A DNA stretch of 36,860 bases, from the UHGV virus genome UHGV-1448156; one strand, written 5' to 3'. The position numbers were made by a program, and so were the translations under genes. Below the pieces are notes generated by a model. The model searched no databases. It was not told the origin of the DNA and saw only the letters and a program-made list of their open reading frames with translations. Source of the stretch: a virus. Below, piece after piece: positions 13,348 to 23,695 of this stretch. Each line of letters begins with the position of its first letter. Position 1 is the stretch's first letter.

Positions 13348-13711
13348 CAAACGGCATCAACTCACAATGCGCCTGAACGAATCCGGCCCCATAAGCTGTA
13401 TACGGGTCGACGAAGGTCACACGATAATCACGGCCCTGATACGTCACGATATCGGCATCACGGCCAGTCTGTCCCTGCGTCAGTCGCTCAGTCGTCACAA
13501 TCAGAATTGCACCGCTGATTACCTGCCCTGCCTGCATACGGCGGTTTTCCAGAGAGCGATCAACAGTTACGACTCCGGCAAACTGCTTTTTAACTTCACT
13601 GTCGCTGCCGATCCCGTCCTCATCCACCGTTTGCACTCGGCGTGTTACCCACAAATTGAAGTCGCAAAAATCGGGGTCAAAAAGCACGTCTGTTACATCA
13701 AGAGTAGGCAT
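13322..13711 (-). CDS. Head-tail connector / neck protein candidate
   Basis: 129 aa; position. Confidence 0.45.
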   Translation of the reverse strand: MPTLDVTDVLFDPDFCDFNLWVTRRVQTVDEDGIGSDSEVKKQFAGVVTVDRSLENRRMQAGQVISGAILIVTTERLTQGQTGRDADIVTYQGRDYRVTFVDPYTAYGAGFVQAHCELMPFDGGTPVEQ

Positions 13712-14252
13712 CTTTATCCCTCACAACATGGGTAATGGCTCTGCGATATTGCCCGGTGTCGATTAGCGGTTTCACCAGATCGGTTCCGGGGGACTCGCCA
13801 GCAGCGCGTCGGGCAAGCTCCGCTTTCGCCCCTTTACGCCCTCGACGCGCGCGGGCTTCAACGGTGCTGTCAGCAAGCGGCGTAAAGCCGGTAATGGTCA
13901 TGTACCGCCTGACACCATTAGCGGCCAGCGTGCCAGCCTGGTTGAGGGCTCTTTCCGCACCCGCCGCATTTCCATCAAGCGCAGCCTGCGCCGCTGCTTT
14001 GAGCTGCGGCACCGTCTGTTCCTCTACGGATTTAACGCCGGGGATCAGGTGCGGGCGTGGGGGTATGTTTTGCGCTGGTGAGCCGTATTCGTTGACGTAA
14101 CCGATCCCGGCATTACCAAACGGAACATCATCCCGCTCGCTGTCTGCTTCCGGGATACCCACCAGCACTTCTTTTTTACTGATGGATTTGAGCGCATCCA
14201 GAATGGCCTGAGCGTTATCCACCCTCGTTGTTACACCGCTTTTGAAGCTCAT
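13698..14252 (-). CDS. Virion morphogenesis protein (Mu gpG-like candidate)
   Basis: 184 aa; Ala/Arg-rich C-terminal half; position. Confidence 0.45.
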
Positions 14253-14656
14253 AGCTGGCGACCGCCCGCACCGAACATCGTGATCAGCTGATAAAATTCA
14301 GCGCCATATCGGGTGTTATTCCAGAAGCCTGCGTCAGGGTTTAGCGTCGCGCTGGTGTCATAGCTGACGCTTACCTTGTCAACAGACTTGGAGGATTGAA
14401 CACCATTGGTTGAACCGCCCGGGCCGCCAACCAGCATTGCCCGACTATCTGCCGCCCATAGCGTCATGTAGTGAGCCACGAACAACTCGGCAAAGTACGG
14501 AAACAACTTTTTTCCGGTGACGTTTTCGCTCAGCAGTTCATCGGCCAGATTCAGACGAAACTGGATTTGCGCTTCGGGATATTTGGCAGGGTCAGCAAAC
14601 TGCGGGAAGTCGCGGCGAAAATCACTTACCGCTGGCAGACTTTGATTCTTTGGCAT
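14249..14656 (-). CDS. Head-tail adaptor candidate
   Basis: 135 aa; ATG 14656 with SD GAGGT 5 nt upstream; overlaps the 73-aa gene by 35 nt. Confidence 0.45.
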
Positions 14657-14843
14657 TTTTTACCTCGTTACGCGCGTCTGTGGCTTTGCCAACGGATACC
14701 TCCGCGTGCGCACGAGTGAACCAGTGCGTGGCAACGTCTTCCTCCACAGCATGACGGCCTTTAAGAAACTCGCGCCGTGAACCGTCGGGAAGCGTGAGCA
14801 CAAACGGGGTATGTACGTGTATTACTGCATTATTTTTTGCCAT
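14622..14843 (-). CDS. Small head-module protein (73 aa)
   Basis: ATG 14843 with SD AAGGA; track ORF 14622-15074 trimmed because its 5' part overlaps the capsid gene. Confidence 0.4.
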
Positions 14844-14883
14844 CAGGTCATCCTTAATGGCCCCGCCAGGGGCCATGTGGCTG

Positions 14884-15825
14884 TTAAATGCCATCAACGT
14901 ACGAAATGGTTTCTTTGTACACTGGCTCGACTGCACCCAGCTTGCCGTAGTAGGTCGCAATCTGATACAGACCACGATACTGGATAGGAACGCTCTGCAA
15001 CGGCACCAGCGGATAGCGCACGTATTTCTTGTCGTTGGTGTACGCAACCATGCGATCCTTATTCCCCACACCACGGCCTTTCAGCCATTTAACCGCGCGG
15101 ATATTCAGCGGAACACCGTTCTGGTGATAGCTGATGGTGTTGGTCTGAAGATACGTCAACAGGGACTGGTTACCCGCAGATGAAACGATGATGCTGGACA
15201 ACAGAGCAAACTGCTCAGGCGGGATCAGCAAATCACGCGGAACCACAGAGTAACCAGAAGCGGCCCACGCATCAGACAGCACCTGGTTAATGCTTGCGCG
15301 GATTTCGTCCGGTGTTGAGGTTGCCCACGTTTTGGCAGCGTTGTTGACAGGAACACCGTTCAGGGTAACAAGACCTTTCAGGTTTAATGCGGAATCGCCA
15401 ACATACACCTGCTCGTCGTTGTCCATCTGCCATTTGAGCTGCATCCCGTCGTACTTCTGGGTGTCAATCGGGCGACCTACCTGCTGAGCTGCTGCCAGCT
15501 CTACAACGGTCCAGCCCAGTTCCATGCCCCAGAGATTCAGCGGGTTACCGGATTTGCCGATATCCACGTTTACGCCAGCAATAGCGGTTGAGTCTTTGCC
15601 TACCCAGTTTTTGCCATTCGGATTTGCACCAGTACCCGCAGCGGCGAAGCTGGTATTCGTCCAGCTGGAAATGTCATCTGCGATAGAGACATCTTCACGC
15701 AACTGAATATCGCGGGTCCAGGTGTACCCCACCAGTGGCAGGTTCAGCGTCTGGTCGAGTCGCTCCAGCTCCCCGATGAGAAAGGCACCAGAGCTGTCAA
15801 CGGTTGCCTGATCAAAAGTAATCAT
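14884..15825 (-). CDS. Major capsid protein
   Basis: 313 aa after the protease-scaffold and a small head protein. Confidence 0.65.
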   Translation of the reverse strand: MITFDQATVDSSGAFLIGELERLDQTLNLPLVGYTWTRDIQLREDVSIADDISSWTNTSFAAAGTGANPNGKNWVGKDSTAIAGVNVDIGKSGNPLNLWGMELGWTVVELAAAQQVGRPIDTQKYDGMQLKWQMDNDEQVYVGDSALNLKGLVTLNGVPVNNAAKTWATSTPDEIRASINQVLSDAWAASGYSVVPRDLLIPPEQFALLSSIIVSSAGNQSLLTYLQTNTISYHQNGVPLNIRAVKWLKGRGVGNKDRMVAYTNDKKYVRYPLVPLQSVPIQYRGLYQIATYYGKLGAVEPVYKETISYVDGI

Positions 15826-15836
15826 TCGTCTGTTCC

Positions 15837-16343
15837 TTAAATCTTCCAGGAAATTTCTGCATTGCCGTTAGCATCACCGGCACCTGTGAATTCAGCGTTG
15901 GTCAGCACCACGTTTTTGCCACTGACTGACGTGGACATGAATCCACCCAGCGGCACTTTGATGGATTCATCAGTGGAGACGACAACGTATACCGGGTCGC
16001 CTTTTTTGATGGTGCTGGCATCAAAATCAGAACCGAGATTAACGGTCACGTAGCCACGCTTCATGGCGTCGCCCGGGAAGTTCTTGCCACTCCCCGCCTG
16101 GCGAACCATGTCCGGCTGCGAAGTGGTCGGATAAGGACGCACGTAGATCCCCTTCACCTTGTCTGCGGTATCACCATCTGCCAGCGGTACGAAAAAACCG
16201 TCAGCATCGTATTTACCAGCCAGCCCATAGGCAGCAAAGGCGTTATCGGATTTAAGGACCACCGGTTCGACGGTTAAGTCCTGCGGGCGAGAGACAGCCC
16301 CGGCAATGCCAACAGGCATCCGGTACAGAAATACATTATTCAT
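15837..16343 (-). CDS. Head structural / decoration protein candidate
   Basis: 168 aa between scaffold and capsid genes. Confidence 0.45.
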   Translation of the reverse strand: MNNVFLYRMPVGIAGAVSRPQDLTVEPVVLKSDNAFAAYGLAGKYDADGFFVPLADGDTADKVKGIYVRPYPTTSQPDMVRQAGSGKNFPGDAMKRGYVTVNLGSDFDASTIKKGDPVYVVVSTDESIKVPLGGFMSTSVSGKNVVLTNAEFTGAGDANGNAEISWKI

Positions 16344-16346
16344 TTT

Positions 16347-17567
16347 TTACCCTTTACGGTTTGCCCAGAATTCAGCGTTTTGTTTGTTCAGGGAAGCGAT
16401 ACTGGTCATGCCCATGTTTGGGCGCTGTGCATCGCCGGTGGTGGCGCGGGTGTTTCGCCCTTTGGCAATCTCAGACACGGCATTAAACGCCATGTTGACC
16501 GATTGTTTCGGTAATTTGCGGATATCCGCATCACCGACTATCTGGCGAACCAGCGTTTTGTCAGCGGAAGCCAGAACCTCGCGTTTGAACGCGGTCGGTT
16601 TCATCTTACGGCTCAGATCGATACCCGGAACGATAACTTCGGCACGCCAGGCTGAGTCACCAGTAATCGTGGTTTCCTCTTCATCATCCTCGCCGTCACC
16701 GGTCGGATTATCGTCAGGCTTATTATCATTATCGCCCGTGGCATTTCCTTCCAGCTTAGCCAGCAGGGCTTTCAGTAATGTTTTGAGGTCATCATCACTG
16801 TCGCCGGTTGGACCTCCACCCATCTCTGGTGCTTTGTCCGGTAGTGGTTGCTGCGGGGACAGGTTGATGTTGAGATTAACGCCCTGCGGCAAATCCCCCT
16901 CATCTCCTGTAACCGATGCGGGAGCCGACTCCACCAGTTCGTTCATGGTGTCGGCATCTCCTGTCTTGATGGCTGCACGCATGCGGTTCCACCAGTTTTT
17001 CTTTTGATTTGCCATTGTGTCTCTGTCTCCAATTGCACAACGATTTCCGGCTCTGCCTTTGGGGACAAGAGCCACATGGTTTCCGGTAATATCGACCTGC
17101 TCGGCTTTACCTGGCTCGGTCTGCTCGTACTCCGCGTCATAGCCGCACGACACTTCACGCAGGCCATCTTCGATAAGCTGAATGGCGTTTTCGTCTTTGA
17201 CGATAAGGTCAGCCAGCATCAAATCAGACTGGTCACCAGTCCCGCGCCGCACATTCTGAAGATGCCCGACAGCAAGCTCTTTCCAGTTCTCGGGATTTAC
17301 CAGCCGCACATTCCCGTTTTCATCTTCAGGATGCAGGATCGTGATGCTCATCCCTTCGAATGAGGCGAGCGTGGCCGGATTGAATACCTGCTCAGGAGAA
17401 CGCGTTACGACTATCTCACCGAGCTTGTCGGGTTTGAGGTTTGGCAGATCGGCAGCGCCGTAGAGCTGCTTACCCGTTCGACCTATCGGCACGTCTTTGC
17501 ACAGCAGCGAGCCGTCAGCCAGCTGATAGCGGGTTTCCCCCAGCCGGGTATTGAAAAAATATTTCAT
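16347..17567 (-). CDS. Prohead protease / scaffold protein (Mu gpI-like)
   Basis: 406 aa; acidic Asp/Glu-rich central linker typical of scaffolds; position after the F-like gene. Confidence 0.55.
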   Translation of the reverse strand: MKYFFNTRLGETRYQLADGSLLCKDVPIGRTGKQLYGAADLPNLKPDKLGEIVVTRSPEQVFNPATLASFEGMSITILHPEDENGNVRLVNPENWKELAVGHLQNVRRGTGDQSDLMLADLIVKDENAIQLIEDGLREVSCGYDAEYEQTEPGKAEQVDITGNHVALVPKGRAGNRCAIGDRDTMANQKKNWWNRMRAAIKTGDADTMNELVESAPASVTGDEGDLPQGVNLNINLSPQQPLPDKAPEMGGGPTGDSDDDLKTLLKALLAKLEGNATGDNDNKPDDNPTGDGEDDEEETTITGDSAWRAEVIVPGIDLSRKMKPTAFKREVLASADKTLVRQIVGDADIRKLPKQSVNMAFNAVSEIAKGRNTRATTGDAQRPNMGMTSIASLNKQNAEFWANRKG

Positions 17568-21297: not shown

Positions 21298-21849
21298 TTA
21301 GCCCATCATTTTTCTATACGCCTCTGCAGCCTGCTCCGGCGTTAAGTTGGTAATTTCTGTTCTGACTGGTCCTCCGTCAGCACCAGTCACTTCATTTTTG
21401 ACGTTGTCTTTAAACGCCTGAACAGAAACATGACGCCCGAGCAACTCAAGGTTTTTAACCTTATCAGGCCATTTGATTTTCTTCAGGAGAGCAGCACTAT
21501 CTGCGGATACCATCTCCACGACATCCATTCCTGATAGCGTTGTGCGCCATACCTTAGGCCAGTCTTTAATGGGCTTTAGCTCACCGTTTTGCAGGAGAAT
21601 GTCGAGCACATCCATCTGGTCGATTTCAATAAGGCGATTAAGCACATATTCTGCATTAATACCAACAAGATCATTGCGTTGCGCTTTCAGTTCGGCGATT
21701 CTGAATTGGATGTCAGGTTTTGACATGTTTTCGGATGCGGTACGGTTAGCTGTCTTTGCGCTGTACCCCGCCCGAATAGCCGCTTGTGTGGCGTTTAAAT
21801 CGATGAGGTACTCGCGACAGAACATCTCTTGTTTGTCGGTGAGTGCCAT
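21298..21849 (-). CDS. Terminase small subunit
   Basis: 183 aa; N-terminus [30 protein letters not shown] is typical of small terminase DNA-binding domains. Confidence 0.65.
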
Positions 21850-21873
21850 AGTTTTCTCTAGAGGATTTCTTTA

Positions 21874-22110
21874 ATGAACTCAAAGCAAATTTTTTACCGA
21901 AATACAGGTCATGATAATGAAACTTATATATTCCTGGACAAATTGGACAATGGCTCCTACCAAGTCAGGGCTGGTCATTCGTCACCTGTGAGCCATTTTG
22001 AATGGGAGGGTGATGAAACCATTCAGACAGTGGAAGAGTTTCTAGGTTCTAACCCATCATATACTGAACGTGTTCATCAACTAATTTCTGAGTTTGAAGC
22101 AGAATCGTAA
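21874..22110 (+). CDS. Hypothetical 78-aa acidic protein
   Basis: ATG 21874 with AGAGGA upstream; only 24 bp from the divergent small terminase start; antisense to the late transcript. Confidence 0.35.
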   Translation: MNSKQIFYRNTGHDNETYIFLDKLDNGSYQVRAGHSSPVSHFEWEGDETIQTVEEFLGSNPSYTERVHQLISEFEAES

Positions 22111-22246
22111 TCACCACCCAAGCGACTCAGCTGATATCTAGTTCATCATTACTAGGACTAAAAGTAGATTCCTGACATTGAGAATCTCTTTATCCGCTTG
22201 TGGGGATATCAGTTAAGTTATCCCGTGTAGGGTATAAGCCATTGTC

Positions 22247-22269
22247 GAGACCACTCATTGAATGGTCTC
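22247..22269. repeat. Hairpin A: GAGACCA-CTCATTGAA-TGGTCTC
   Basis: 7-bp stem with 9-nt loop; direct reading. Confidence 0.5.
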
Positions 22270-22441
22270 TGCAATAACCGATGTCTTTCCATCAGTCCGC
22301 CACCACAAAGAATCTTTTTTGCCATAAGGCAGGAGGTTCATCTTTCAGTGGCTGCCAGTGTTATTTCCCCACTTACTGGCTTGGGTTGTTTCGCTGTACT
22401 GCCGTAACTGGTTACCCAGAATAAATTCCGGTTTCATTATC

Positions 22442-22464
22442 GAAGCCCCTCAATGAAGGGCTTC
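22442..22464. repeat. Hairpin B: GAAGCCC-CTCAATGAA-GGGCTTC
   Basis: Same architecture as hairpin A; loop differs at one base, stems differ but remain complementary. Confidence 0.5.
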
Positions 22465-22572
22465 TGTAATGCCTTACTTCATGAAATAATTTCATCCGGG
22501 TTTACGCAGAAAACCTTTCACTTTATGTGCATTATGAAAATGCCAATTGCGGCATATCTCTGGGAAACTTAA

Positions 22573-23133
22573 ATGATCCATACCGTACACTTCATGACAG
22601 ATGTGACAGTTGCTTCTGTATCCAGCCTTATGGATGTTTGCCTCAAAGCGATATCAAGCCCTAACCAACCAGCCTCTGAGATCAGGATTTACATCTCTAG
22701 TAAAGGTGGAGATACCGTTGCAGGTTTTACCGCATACAACTTTCTTAAGTCTCTTCCTGTAAAGGTGAAGACACATAACCTTAGTAACGTGGAATCTATA
22801 GCAAATGTTATTTTCATGGCTGGATCTGAGCGGTTTGCTAATCCTCTCTCGCGATTTTTATTACATCCTTTACATTGGGGATTTGCCGCCCCACAAGCAG
22901 ATCACCTCAGGCTTAGGGAATGGGCGGCATGTCTGGATGACGACTTGCAAAGATTTGTGCAGGTGATGAATATCGAGGCTCTCGCTGTAGCCCCAGATGA
23001 GCAAATTGACTGGGCTAATTTGATCACTTCTGCAACCATCATTGATCCGGGAAGGGCCACCGAGTTGGGTATGATCCAGAATGTCGAGGCTGCAACCATA
23101 CCCACAGATTCGATCAGGTGGTGGGTTCTGTAA
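22573..23133 (+). CDS. ClpP-fold (S14/crotonase-like) peptidase homologue, 186 aa
   Basis: IRIYISSKGGDTVAGFTAY...VESIANVIFMAGSERFANPLSRFLLHPL aligns with ClpP YINSPGGVITAGMSIY...[30 protein letters not shown] from memory; candidate Ser and His retained. Opposite strand to all flanking late genes. Confidence 0.6.
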   Translation: MIHTVHFMTDVTVASVSSLMDVCLKAISSPNQPASEIRIYISSKGGDTVAGFTAYNFLKSLPVKVKTHNLSNVESIANVIFMAGSERFANPLSRFLLHPLHWGFAAPQADHLRLREWAACLDDDLQRFVQVMNIEALAVAPDEQIDWANLITSATIIDPGRATELGMIQNVEAATIPTDSIRWWVL

Positions 23134-23160
23134 CATTTTGAATCCTCCATAAGTGCGGGC

Positions 23161-23418
23161 TTATTGGCCCGCTTGTTTCTTTACAGCTTGCCTAATATCT
23201 GCCTTATCCCGGTTGCACTGCCCAAGCGCTGATAGGAGACTGACGTTTAAATCTAGGCTCTGGCCCCACGTCAGGTTGTCAGGGATTTCCGGTTGCGGGG
23301 TGTCAGCCGTCAGGCTGGCCGGTAACGGGACTACCGGCACTTTGACGTAGACCGTTCGCGAATTGTTGCAGCCGCTTAACTGCGCCAGCAGGGACATGGC
23401 GATTAGTGCAATCATCAT
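23161..23418 (-). CDS. Rz1-like o-spanin lipoprotein
   Basis: Out-of-frame ORF overlapping the Rz 3' half; lipobox LSGC followed by Pro-rich sequence; start at 23418 or 23415. Confidence 0.5.
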   Translation of the reverse strand: MMIALIAMSLLAQLSGCNNSRTVYVKVPVVPLPASLTADTPQPEIPDNLTWGQSLDLNVSLLSALGQCNRDKADIRQAVKKQAGQ

Positions 23419-23695
23419 TCGCAACAGCAACCCGGATATCAGCCGAGGCTCCCGATGCGTCCAGTGCGATCTGCTCTTTTGCATGCTGGTTAGCCTCTAT
23501 AACTGTATTGATGATTTGCAGTGATTGCAGAACGTTACGGGTAATGGCAGTTGCTGATTCAGCATTTCGTACAGCCTCATCAGCACGCTCCTTTTCGTGC
23601 TGATATTTGCTGTAGTAATGCCCAGCAGACCAGATGAAGGAACCAATGACGGTAACAACGAAGGCAACAATAACCAGCTTATATCTCAGCTTCAT
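23303..23695 (-). CDS. Rz-like i-spanin
   Basis: 130 aa, N-terminal transmembrane helix then helical periplasmic domain; starts inside the 3' end of R. Confidence 0.55.
   Translation of the reverse strand: MKLRYKLVIVAFVVTVIGSFIWSAGHYYSKYQHEKERADEAVRNAESATAITRNVLQSLQIINTVIEANQHAKEQIALDASGASADIRVAVANDDCTNRHVPAGAVKRLQQFANGLRQSAGSPVTGQPDG

Follow-up and report, generated by a model that had tools for sequence, protein, structure and literature searches.

The virus genome UHGV-1448156 (36,860 nucleotides (nt), the whole of which is referred to as the window) carries on its plus strand a ClpP-like gene encoding a protein of 186 amino acids (aa). The gene is situated between the lysis genes Rz1 and Rz on its right and the packaging and head genes on its left, i.e. 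terS, terL, and the genes for the portal, Mu-F-like, DUF2213, cement and major capsid proteins, all of which are on the minus strand. The initial annotation had described this open reading frame (ORF) as convergent with Rz/Rz1 and antisense to the flanking late genes, and both coordinates and strands were borne out. The window variant of the ClpP-like gene travels with a lysis cassette that ends in Rz and Rz1. The GC fraction was 0.42–0.46 across the ClpP-like gene versus 0.53–0.60 in Rz and terL, and tRNA and Rfam scans of the window were empty.

Residues 31–111 of the protein matched the Pfam profile CLP_protease (PF00574) with 46.5 bits (E-value 4.9e-12), the gathering score of this profile being 20.2 bits. 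In BLASTP against the E. coli ClpP sequence, identity was 29% over 80 residues with a single 2-residue gap, in agreement with the near-gapless alignment reported at the outset. The AlphaFold2 model, built with 55 homologues (mean pLDDT 93.7, pTM 0.90), displayed the ClpP alpha/beta head domain and a handle helix (helix 111–137), and was matched by Foldseek to solved ClpP structures with TM-scores of 0.75–0.84 and a probability of 1.00. The S14/ClpP fold first proposed is upheld by the profile, the model and the structure search, and chance resemblance is excluded.

Catalytic residues were mapped by alignment of 26 family members with E. coli ClpP. Ser75 (within VESIA), His98 (within LLHPL) and Gly46 aligned with ClpP Ser97, His122 and the oxyanion Gly68, respectively, and each was invariant (26/26), so that the retention of the catalytic Ser and His, recognised already in the initial annotation, extends to the family. 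The Asp position had been left in doubt there, and rightly so; it is in fact non-acidic family-wide. The position of ClpP Asp171 is occupied by Ala154 in the window protein, and by Ala (17), Ser (7) or Thr (2) in the 26 members, never by an acidic residue. The Ser-His-Asp catalytic triad of ClpP is consequently incomplete, with the Asp lost.

The first beta-strand of the model comprises residues 2–7, and ca. 60 alignment columns of the E. coli ClpP N-terminus have no counterpart. As the protein starts at this strand, the N-terminal axial loops, which form the pore gate and contact ClpX/ClpA, are absent. In the sequence alignment, the positions of the IGF/LGF docking pocket were mostly polar (Y60 to R38, F82 to S60, I90 to H68, L114 to N90, and L189 to E172), with R, N or K at the Y60 position across the family, whereas Y62, M92 (as Leu) and F112 were kept. 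Family-specific invariant positions included THN (67–69), HPLxW (98–102), D110-H111, E116, D124, and the C-terminal WWV. Judged by its sequence, the protein is a gate-less ClpP-fold paralogue with a mostly polar docking pocket.

Among solved structures, the family profile matched PDB entry 9UXT chain A with an E-value of 1.1e-48 (positions 3–179 versus 4–182), against ~1e-12 for the best canonical ClpP, and the same chain was the top Foldseek match (9uxt_A; TM-scores 0.91/0.93, root-mean-square deviation 1.5 Å, 33% identity). This entry is the cryo-electron microscopy (cryo-EM) structure of PpClpP1 of Pseudomonas plecoglossicida (Chen et al., PLoS Pathog 2026, PMC12900304), with which the window protein shared 34% identity in BLASTP (E-value 4e-39). 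The novelty that had been implied for the protein was overstated, as a full-length homologue with cryo-EM structure and biochemistry exists (9UXT, 2026). PpClpP1 is a protein of 183 aa with a truncated N-terminus and a 'Ser73-His96-Pro151' site; it forms a homotetradecamer with an axial pore of 42.7 Å, does not bind ClpX, and has a peptidase activity 13-fold below that of the canonical PpClpP2 (PMC12900304). Substitution of its Ser or His by Ala abolishes the activity, while substitution of the Pro by Ala or Asp keeps ~60% of it (PMC12900304). Together with PpClpP2 it forms a stable heterotetradecamer of ~300 kDa, in which both peptidase activity and ClpX-dependent degradation are raised (PMC12900304). 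PpClpP1 is inhibited by bortezomib, its deletion leads to growth and motility defects, and it was read by its authors as a latent state in need of a partner ring (PMC12900304). By analogy, PpClpP1 would be the best guide to the biochemistry of the window protein. The protein type is known; the prophage-cargo lifestyle of its enterobacterial branch was not found described in the literature searched.

Table 1. Position of the ClpP-like gene, its putative signals and the neighbouring features in the window.
Feature	Position	Strand	Description
terS	21298–21849	-	Pfam Terminase_2; left of the ClpP-like gene
78-aa ORF	21874–22110	+	Diverges from terS, antisense to the late operon, in the inter-module gap of the ClpP-like gene
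P22-like stretch	22300–22405	-	95% identical to P22 40180–40287, immediately 3′ of rha; left boundary of the slot
Recurrent stretch of ~70 bp	22400–22471		Recurs, unannotated, in 12 Salmonella P22-like phages
Upstream hairpin	22443–22465	both	Folds on both strands, -14.9 and -17.4 kcal/mol
Candidate promoter and 5′ untranslated region	22466–22572	+	5′ part of the cassette, co-inherited with the coding sequence in E. coli W21
TGCATTAT box	22528–22535	+	37 nt upstream of ATG; candidate -10 element (CATTAT, 4/6)
Shine-Dalgarno GGGA	22562–22565	+	Weak; relatives with GAGGA at the same place
In-frame TAA	22570–22572	+	Directly precedes the start codon
Start codon ATG	22573–22575	+	
ClpP-like coding sequence	22573–23133	+	186 aa, ATG start; predicted PpClpP1-type, N-terminally truncated peptidase subunit
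Ser75 codon	22795–22797		
His98 codon	22864–22866		
Ala154 codon	23032–23034		ClpP Asp171 position
Intrinsic-terminator-like hairpin	23155–23182	+	GCGGGC-ttat-tGGCCCGC then TTGTTTCTTT; 22 nt past the stop codon
Rz1/LysC	23161–23484	-	Spanin gene, converges on the ClpP-like gene; context, outside the cassette
Rz	23303–23695	-	Spanin gene, converges on the ClpP-like gene; context, outside the cassette

The gene is flanked by putative signals of its own (Table 1). Downstream, the terminator-like hairpin consists of 7 pairs, 6 of them GC (-14.4 kcal/mol), followed by a T-run, and the same sequence is present in E. coli W21. The hairpin shares sequence with the 3′ end of Rz1, the convergent ORF, and would stop transcripts of the ClpP-like gene from going antisense into the lysis genes. 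Upstream, identity with the E. coli W21 prophage extends from ~22466 through Rz1, and further to the left the two prophages are unrelated. The TGCATTAT box was kept in four of seven aligned upstream regions, including that of a variant with a protein 77% identical, and appeared as TGCATTAG in a fifth; around the box these regions, from variants with proteins 77–98% identical, had otherwise diverged. The box is put forward solely as a candidate -10 element.

Due to a T/G polymorphism before the ATG, the in-frame TAA of the window is GAA in E. coli W21 (locus L001, 20099–20698), and the same gene has been called with 186, 199 or 238 aa. The 199-aa call is that of RefSeq in W21, made because GAA replaces TAA there, and the 238-aa call belongs to one cluster representative. 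Most family members (~178–190 aa) start at the Met used in the window, which opens an MxHT motif, and a few cluster representatives are annotated with N-terminal extensions. The longer calls are, by this comparison, start-site artefacts, and 22573 is the normal start. A truncated pseudogene was considered and rejected, as the TAA before the ATG is not truncating and most family members begin at this Met.

The left edge of the slot resembles the sequence 3′ of rha in P22, so that the cassette stands in the position of this gene, and the region 22300–22481 is a relic of a P22-type junction. The upstream hairpin region may be a terminator or a recombination boundary. The 78-aa ORF in the same gap had no Pfam or PHROG match, and could be either a second small cargo gene or a chance ORF.

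In a collection of 5.8 billion proteins 63 homologues were found, and the wider family comprised 232 clusters (50% identity) at E-values ≤1e-30. Pairwise ratios of nonsynonymous to synonymous substitution (dN/dS) were 0.07–0.14 wherever dS was unsaturated, by which the ClpP-like gene is real and under strong purifying selection. Nucleotide searches found the window variant in 7 of the 5426 complete E. coli genomes, and 50,697 phage records gave no match. With megablast, the mnt-linked query (mnt and ClpP-like gene) matched 149 of the 5426 E. coli genomes, 78 of these over ≥80% of the query, and the invertase-linked variant matched 26; all matches to these two queries were chromosomal. Relatives were carried by at least 125 IMG/VR viral contigs, and deposited phage genomes with the family numbered only six, one of them being that of phiv205-1. 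A scan of species-representative genomes returned six close loci in addition to distant ones (≤33% identity over full length, or partial). The BFVD fold search gave no close viral relative, its best matches being ≤25% identical, and the context of one relative (P0065) was uninformative due to its contig of 931 bp.

The 80 retained IMG/VR loci were classified by tblastn with marker proteins. In 18 loci, with proteins 77–100% identical to the window protein, Rz1 lay 34–63 bp downstream in convergent orientation. The largest class (42 loci, ~56% identity) was in the P22-like immI region directly after mnt. The gene was beside a tail-fibre invertase/resolvase at the prophage end in six loci (52%), antisense between tape-measure and DNA-circularisation genes in three (69–70%), and a few kb from tail-fibre/baseplate genes in three (55–68%), while five loci were next to lysis genes in other arrangements (54–59%) and three stayed unclassified (56–65%). 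In the mnt-coupled loci, the mnt stop and the ClpP-like start overlap as TAATG (translational coupling), the gene order being ant <- arc <- followed by -> mnt -> clpP-like (-> orf59a) and, further on, <- gene 16; a SieA match, itself weak, was found in only 2 of ~45 loci. Additionally, the gene was antisense and 233 bp from N in a Proteus prophage, and between tail-fibre and lysis genes in a Chromobacterium prophage. It was a single gene without conserved partner in every context seen. In all, the enterobacterial branch is carried as cargo by prophages of unrelated types, at no fewer than six different accessory sites.

The ClpP-like gene keeps its place against Rz/Rz1 while the packaging/head module changes, and at least five different terminase/head modules were counted, among them a lambda-like module with S49 protease (E. 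coli W21), Terminase_2 with DUF2213, DUF2280 with a PhageMetallopep protein, and Terminase_6N with DUF4055. In the Klebsiella phages GZ7 and ST405-OXA48phi1.2, with Rz1 93–95% identical, the ClpP-like gene is missing and other small late-strand genes fill the slot. The initial view of the gene as accessory cargo at the lysis-terminase junction is corroborated by this presence/absence polymorphism, the differing head modules and the several unrelated accessory slots.

The slots have counterparts in well-mapped phages. On the P22 reference map, orf59a and sieA are found between mnt and gene 16, and sieB lies antisense by gene 24 (N). In lambda, bor has the antisense slot following Rz/Rz1, and in e14 mcrA lies beside the Pin invertase.

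Other cargo was observed in related prophages. In one of them (L041), a gene for a 480-aa colicin-domain protein (PF01024; 4603–6045) lies between the ClpP-like gene and the terminase genes, and a trio of methyltransferase, ParA-like ATPase and SIR2_2 protein is located at 13375–16387; this content suggests that the lysis-terminase gap is a general cargo hot spot. In another (L004, 14876–15313, plus strand), a 145-aa antisense ORF with no Pfam match lies between DNA-circularisation and tape-measure genes. In L130 and L133 this slot within the tail module is that of the ClpP-like gene, and it is accordingly a recurring, though little-noticed, accessory site.

The PpClpP1 subfamily comprised proteins of Pseudomonas, Azotobacter and Stutzerimonas, uniformly of 183 aa. 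The gene of P0215, 88% identical to PpClpP1 (L137, 7001–7552), is found among DUF72, phospholipase-D-like, KGG stress-protein and metabolic genes, and that of P0080, a 65% identical member of the PpClpP1 branch (L046, 53–622), is directly upstream of the trigger factor gene (tig) on a short contig. As one is by tig and the other elsewhere, this chromosomal branch has more than one locus. The PpClpP1 gene itself is at a 'separate locus', and the paper makes no mention of phages or 'prophage' (PMC12900304). That PpClpP1 is prophage-borne, or generally in a tig-clpP-clpX locus, was considered and rejected, given the plain chromosomal neighbourhood of P0215 and the 'separate locus' of the paper.

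The best PHROG match of the window protein was to the ClpP-type head maturation proteases (phrog_94, 5.7e-22, query residues 3–126 only), and in the genome of phage phiv205-1 (MN340231) the GenBank product name of a relative is 'head maturation protease'. It is nevertheless most improbable that the protein is the head-maturation protease of its phage or a decayed copy of one. It scored 48.2 bits with the NCBIfam head-maturation model NF045542 (cut-off 120) and is without scaffold or capsid-targeting extension. The gene is antisense to and outside the head module, between Rz1 and terS, and relatives occur in immI, by N, in tail modules and at the prophage end, alongside at least five different head modules. 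The window head module has a protease/scaffold candidate of its own, the 406-aa DUF2213 protein, which matched the head-maturation-protease PHROGs phrog_12864 (6e-71) and phrog_530 (4e-52). P22-like phages, which mature their procapsids without proteolysis, carry the same family. The dN/dS of ~0.1 speaks against decay; both the head protease and the decaying relic were rejected on the DUF2213 protein and on this ratio. The initial annotation had likewise excluded a prohead protease, and this stands in view of the DUF2213 candidate and the family members in P22-like phages. In the Lederbergvirus phiv205-1 (L129, 4001–4537) the gene so named is mnt-coupled, and the label is a mis-annotation, as P22-like phages mature their heads without a protease.

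The same PHROG match is in keeping with another explanation, in which the protein is a catalytically feeble decoy or poison subunit. It would assemble together with the host ClpP, or else with the ClpP-like prohead protease of a phage entering the cell, and lower or misdirect their activity. Such a subunit could stabilise ClpXP substrates or block the head maturation of competitors. The lost Asp and the polar docking pocket would fit, as would the fact that one face of the mixed PpClpP1/PpClpP2 complex is unable to bind ClpX (PMC12900304). We nevertheless hold this explanation to be improbable, since Ser75 and His98 are dispensable for a pure decoy and yet invariant, with strong purifying selection on the gene, and since the PpClpP1/PpClpP2 mixture is more active, not less. 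The NCBIfam score (48 bits versus 120) and the BFVD search, in which close phage relatives were missing (≤25% identity), likewise weigh against this explanation. The inactive decoy, offered as an alternative in the initial annotation, becomes its less likely branch, as Ser, His and oxyanion Gly are all invariant and the third residue is dispensable in PpClpP1 (~60% activity after Pro to Ala or Asp).

Concerning expression, the gene would be transcribed from the prophage, antisense to the late operon in the window and within the transcript of the maintenance repressor mnt in the P22-like relatives, and converging late transcription would silence it during lytic growth or after induction. For the window copy, we infer expression in the lysogen from its orientation, its private terminator and the translational coupling to mnt in relatives. 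In P22, Mnt is the maintenance repressor expressed by the prophage, its promoter being annotated on the reference map, and the mnt-coupled subfamily is for this reason almost certainly made in lysogens. A role in the lytic cycle instead, as an early host-takeover or anti-defence protease expressed from its own promoter after infection or induction, has little probability. It would accord with the lack of a promoter assignable by sigma-70 consensus scan, and proteases and ClpP-like proteins with other functions are known from phages; however, the gene is oriented against the late operon and its terminator points at the lysis genes, 42 loci have it within the transcription unit of mnt, a gene that is prophage-expressed in P22, and anti-defence genes are normally co-oriented in early operons.

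The explanation that we favour, and consider somewhat probable, is that of an accessory cassette ('moron') which consists of one gene, is carried by a temperate phage and encodes a gate-less, ClpX-independent ClpP paralogue of the PpClpP1 type which alters host proteolysis. By analogy with PpClpP1, the protein would assemble as two stacked heptameric rings with a wide-open pore, and would have a low intrinsic Ser-His peptidase activity independent of unfoldases, without ClpX binding of its own. Enterobacterales have a single ClpP. Ring-to-ring pairing with this canonical subunit of the host may then give a mixed complex with altered, probably higher, ClpXP/ClpAP output. Co-assembly with host ClpP had been suggested beforehand, and the idea is reasonable given that the solved homologue pairs with its canonical partner (PMC12900304).

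The protein could also act as a stand-alone, open-pored peptidase with no need for host ClpP or an unfoldase, which degrades unfolded or loosely folded polypeptides. Nascent chains, phage proteins on their ejection or injection, and a specific phage regulator, for instance an antirepressor, are candidate substrates, whose degradation would provide exclusion or a second lysogeny lock. The invariant Ser, His and oxyanion Gly and the missing gate point in this direction, together with the 42.7 Å pore and measurable peptidase activity of PpClpP1 alone. So does the genomic context, as the largest subfamily is translated together with Mnt, by which the antirepressor gene ant is repressed, and the window cassette is in place of rha, another antirepressor-type gene. 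We regard this as unlikely, however, because PpClpP1 alone is 13-fold weaker than canonical ClpP and is seen by its authors as a latent state, and because a constitutively open protease is expected to be costly to the host.

The weakest step of the favoured explanation is the payoff of the cassette, which would most likely come from action on phage proteins, i.e. exclusion of superinfecting phages or tighter lysogeny. This payoff is favoured because three of the slots hold SieA, SieB and McrA in P22 and e14, because coupling to mnt is the most frequent arrangement, and because in the window the place of rha is taken by the ClpP-like gene. On a wider scale, it is a tentative possibility that a gate-less ClpP subunit was taken up by temperate phages of Enterobacterales as a mobile cassette expressed in lysogens, which reprograms host ClpP or acts as an open peptidase and so protects the lysogen or locks the prophage.

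Several points weigh against the cassette as a modifier of host proteolysis. Identity to PpClpP1 is only 34%, and oligomeric state, pore size, activity and pairing with the ClpP of E. coli or Klebsiella are extrapolated from it; moreover, PpClpP1 is chromosomal with a co-evolved partner, and a phage-borne copy meets a ClpP with which it did not co-evolve. The docking-pocket residues were mapped from E. coli ClpP by sequence alignment only. The sigma-70 consensus scan of 21800–23400 called no promoter. A payoff read from the slot alone is guilt by location, a weak argument, and the occupant of the Rz-downstream slot in lambda, bor, is a serum-resistance gene and not a defence gene. No defence model of PADLOC-DB 2.0.0 matched (0 families at E-values ≤1), and no paper in the literature search linked the ClpP-like family to phage resistance or to a prophage or defence role; the P22 SieA paper makes no mention of Clp.

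Many regulators of phage and host, e.g. replication initiators, repressors, antitoxins and SOS proteins, depend for their fate on ClpXP and ClpAP, and a prophage with a ClpP ring of its own could rewire the Clp system through one small gene. If true, this would be a principle of defence or exclusion by reprogramming of the core Clp protease, for which current defence catalogues have no entry. The family is not rare, being a fairly common, mobile and mis-annotated prophage gene, for which the RefSeq label 'ATP-dependent Clp protease proteolytic subunit' is doubtful, as the ATPase-docking features are missing. The PpClpP1 structure provides ready assays (Suc-LLVY-AMC peptidase activity, GFP-ssrA degradation, bortezomib), and the prophage setting a possible biological rationale for a ClpP subtype that so far has been studied only as a drug target.

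In comparison with known systems, PpClpP1 is alike in length class (183 versus 186 aa), in the start at the first beta-strand without gate, in the retained Ser and His, and in the non-acidic third residue. This residue is Pro in PpClpP1 and Ala154 in the window protein (Ala, Ser or Thr in the enterobacterial branch), and PpClpP1-type genes lie in ordinary conserved chromosomal neighbourhoods across Pseudomonas, whereas the enterobacterial branch is prophage cargo. Canonical ClpP (MEROPS S14; E. coli, S. aureus) shares the fold, the Ser, His and oxyanion Gly positions and the handle helix. The window protein differs from it by the low identity (~19–20%), the missing ~20–30 N-terminal residues of the gate and the ClpX/ClpA contact, the replacement of Asp171 by Ala, a mostly polar pocket, and the location of its gene on a prophage and not in the tig-clpP-clpX-lon locus. 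The ClpP-like head-maturation proteases (NF045542, PHROG 94) are likewise phage-borne with the S14 fold and gave the strongest PHROG match; in contrast to these, the window protein is below the cut-off, encoded outside the head module, without scaffold or targeting domain, and found in phages whose heads require no protease.

P. aeruginosa ClpP2, L. monocytogenes ClpP1 and M. tuberculosis ClpP1P2 are comparable as cases in which a paralogue that is weakly active or blind to ClpX gains its use within a mixed tetradecamer (PMC12900304). The second ClpP paralogues in PDB entries 4RYF, 7M1L and 9P53 share the fold with the window protein, but are chromosomal, have Asp or Asn as third residue, and are no more similar to it than other ClpPs (E-values 1e-8 to 1e-10). 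Finally, the morons bor of lambda, sieA/orf59a of P22, sieB of P22 and lambda, and mcrA of e14 occupy the same slots with the same genomic logic; they have no sequence or fold relation to the ClpP-like protein, being membrane proteins or a nuclease as opposed to a predicted cytoplasmic, self-compartmentalising peptidase.

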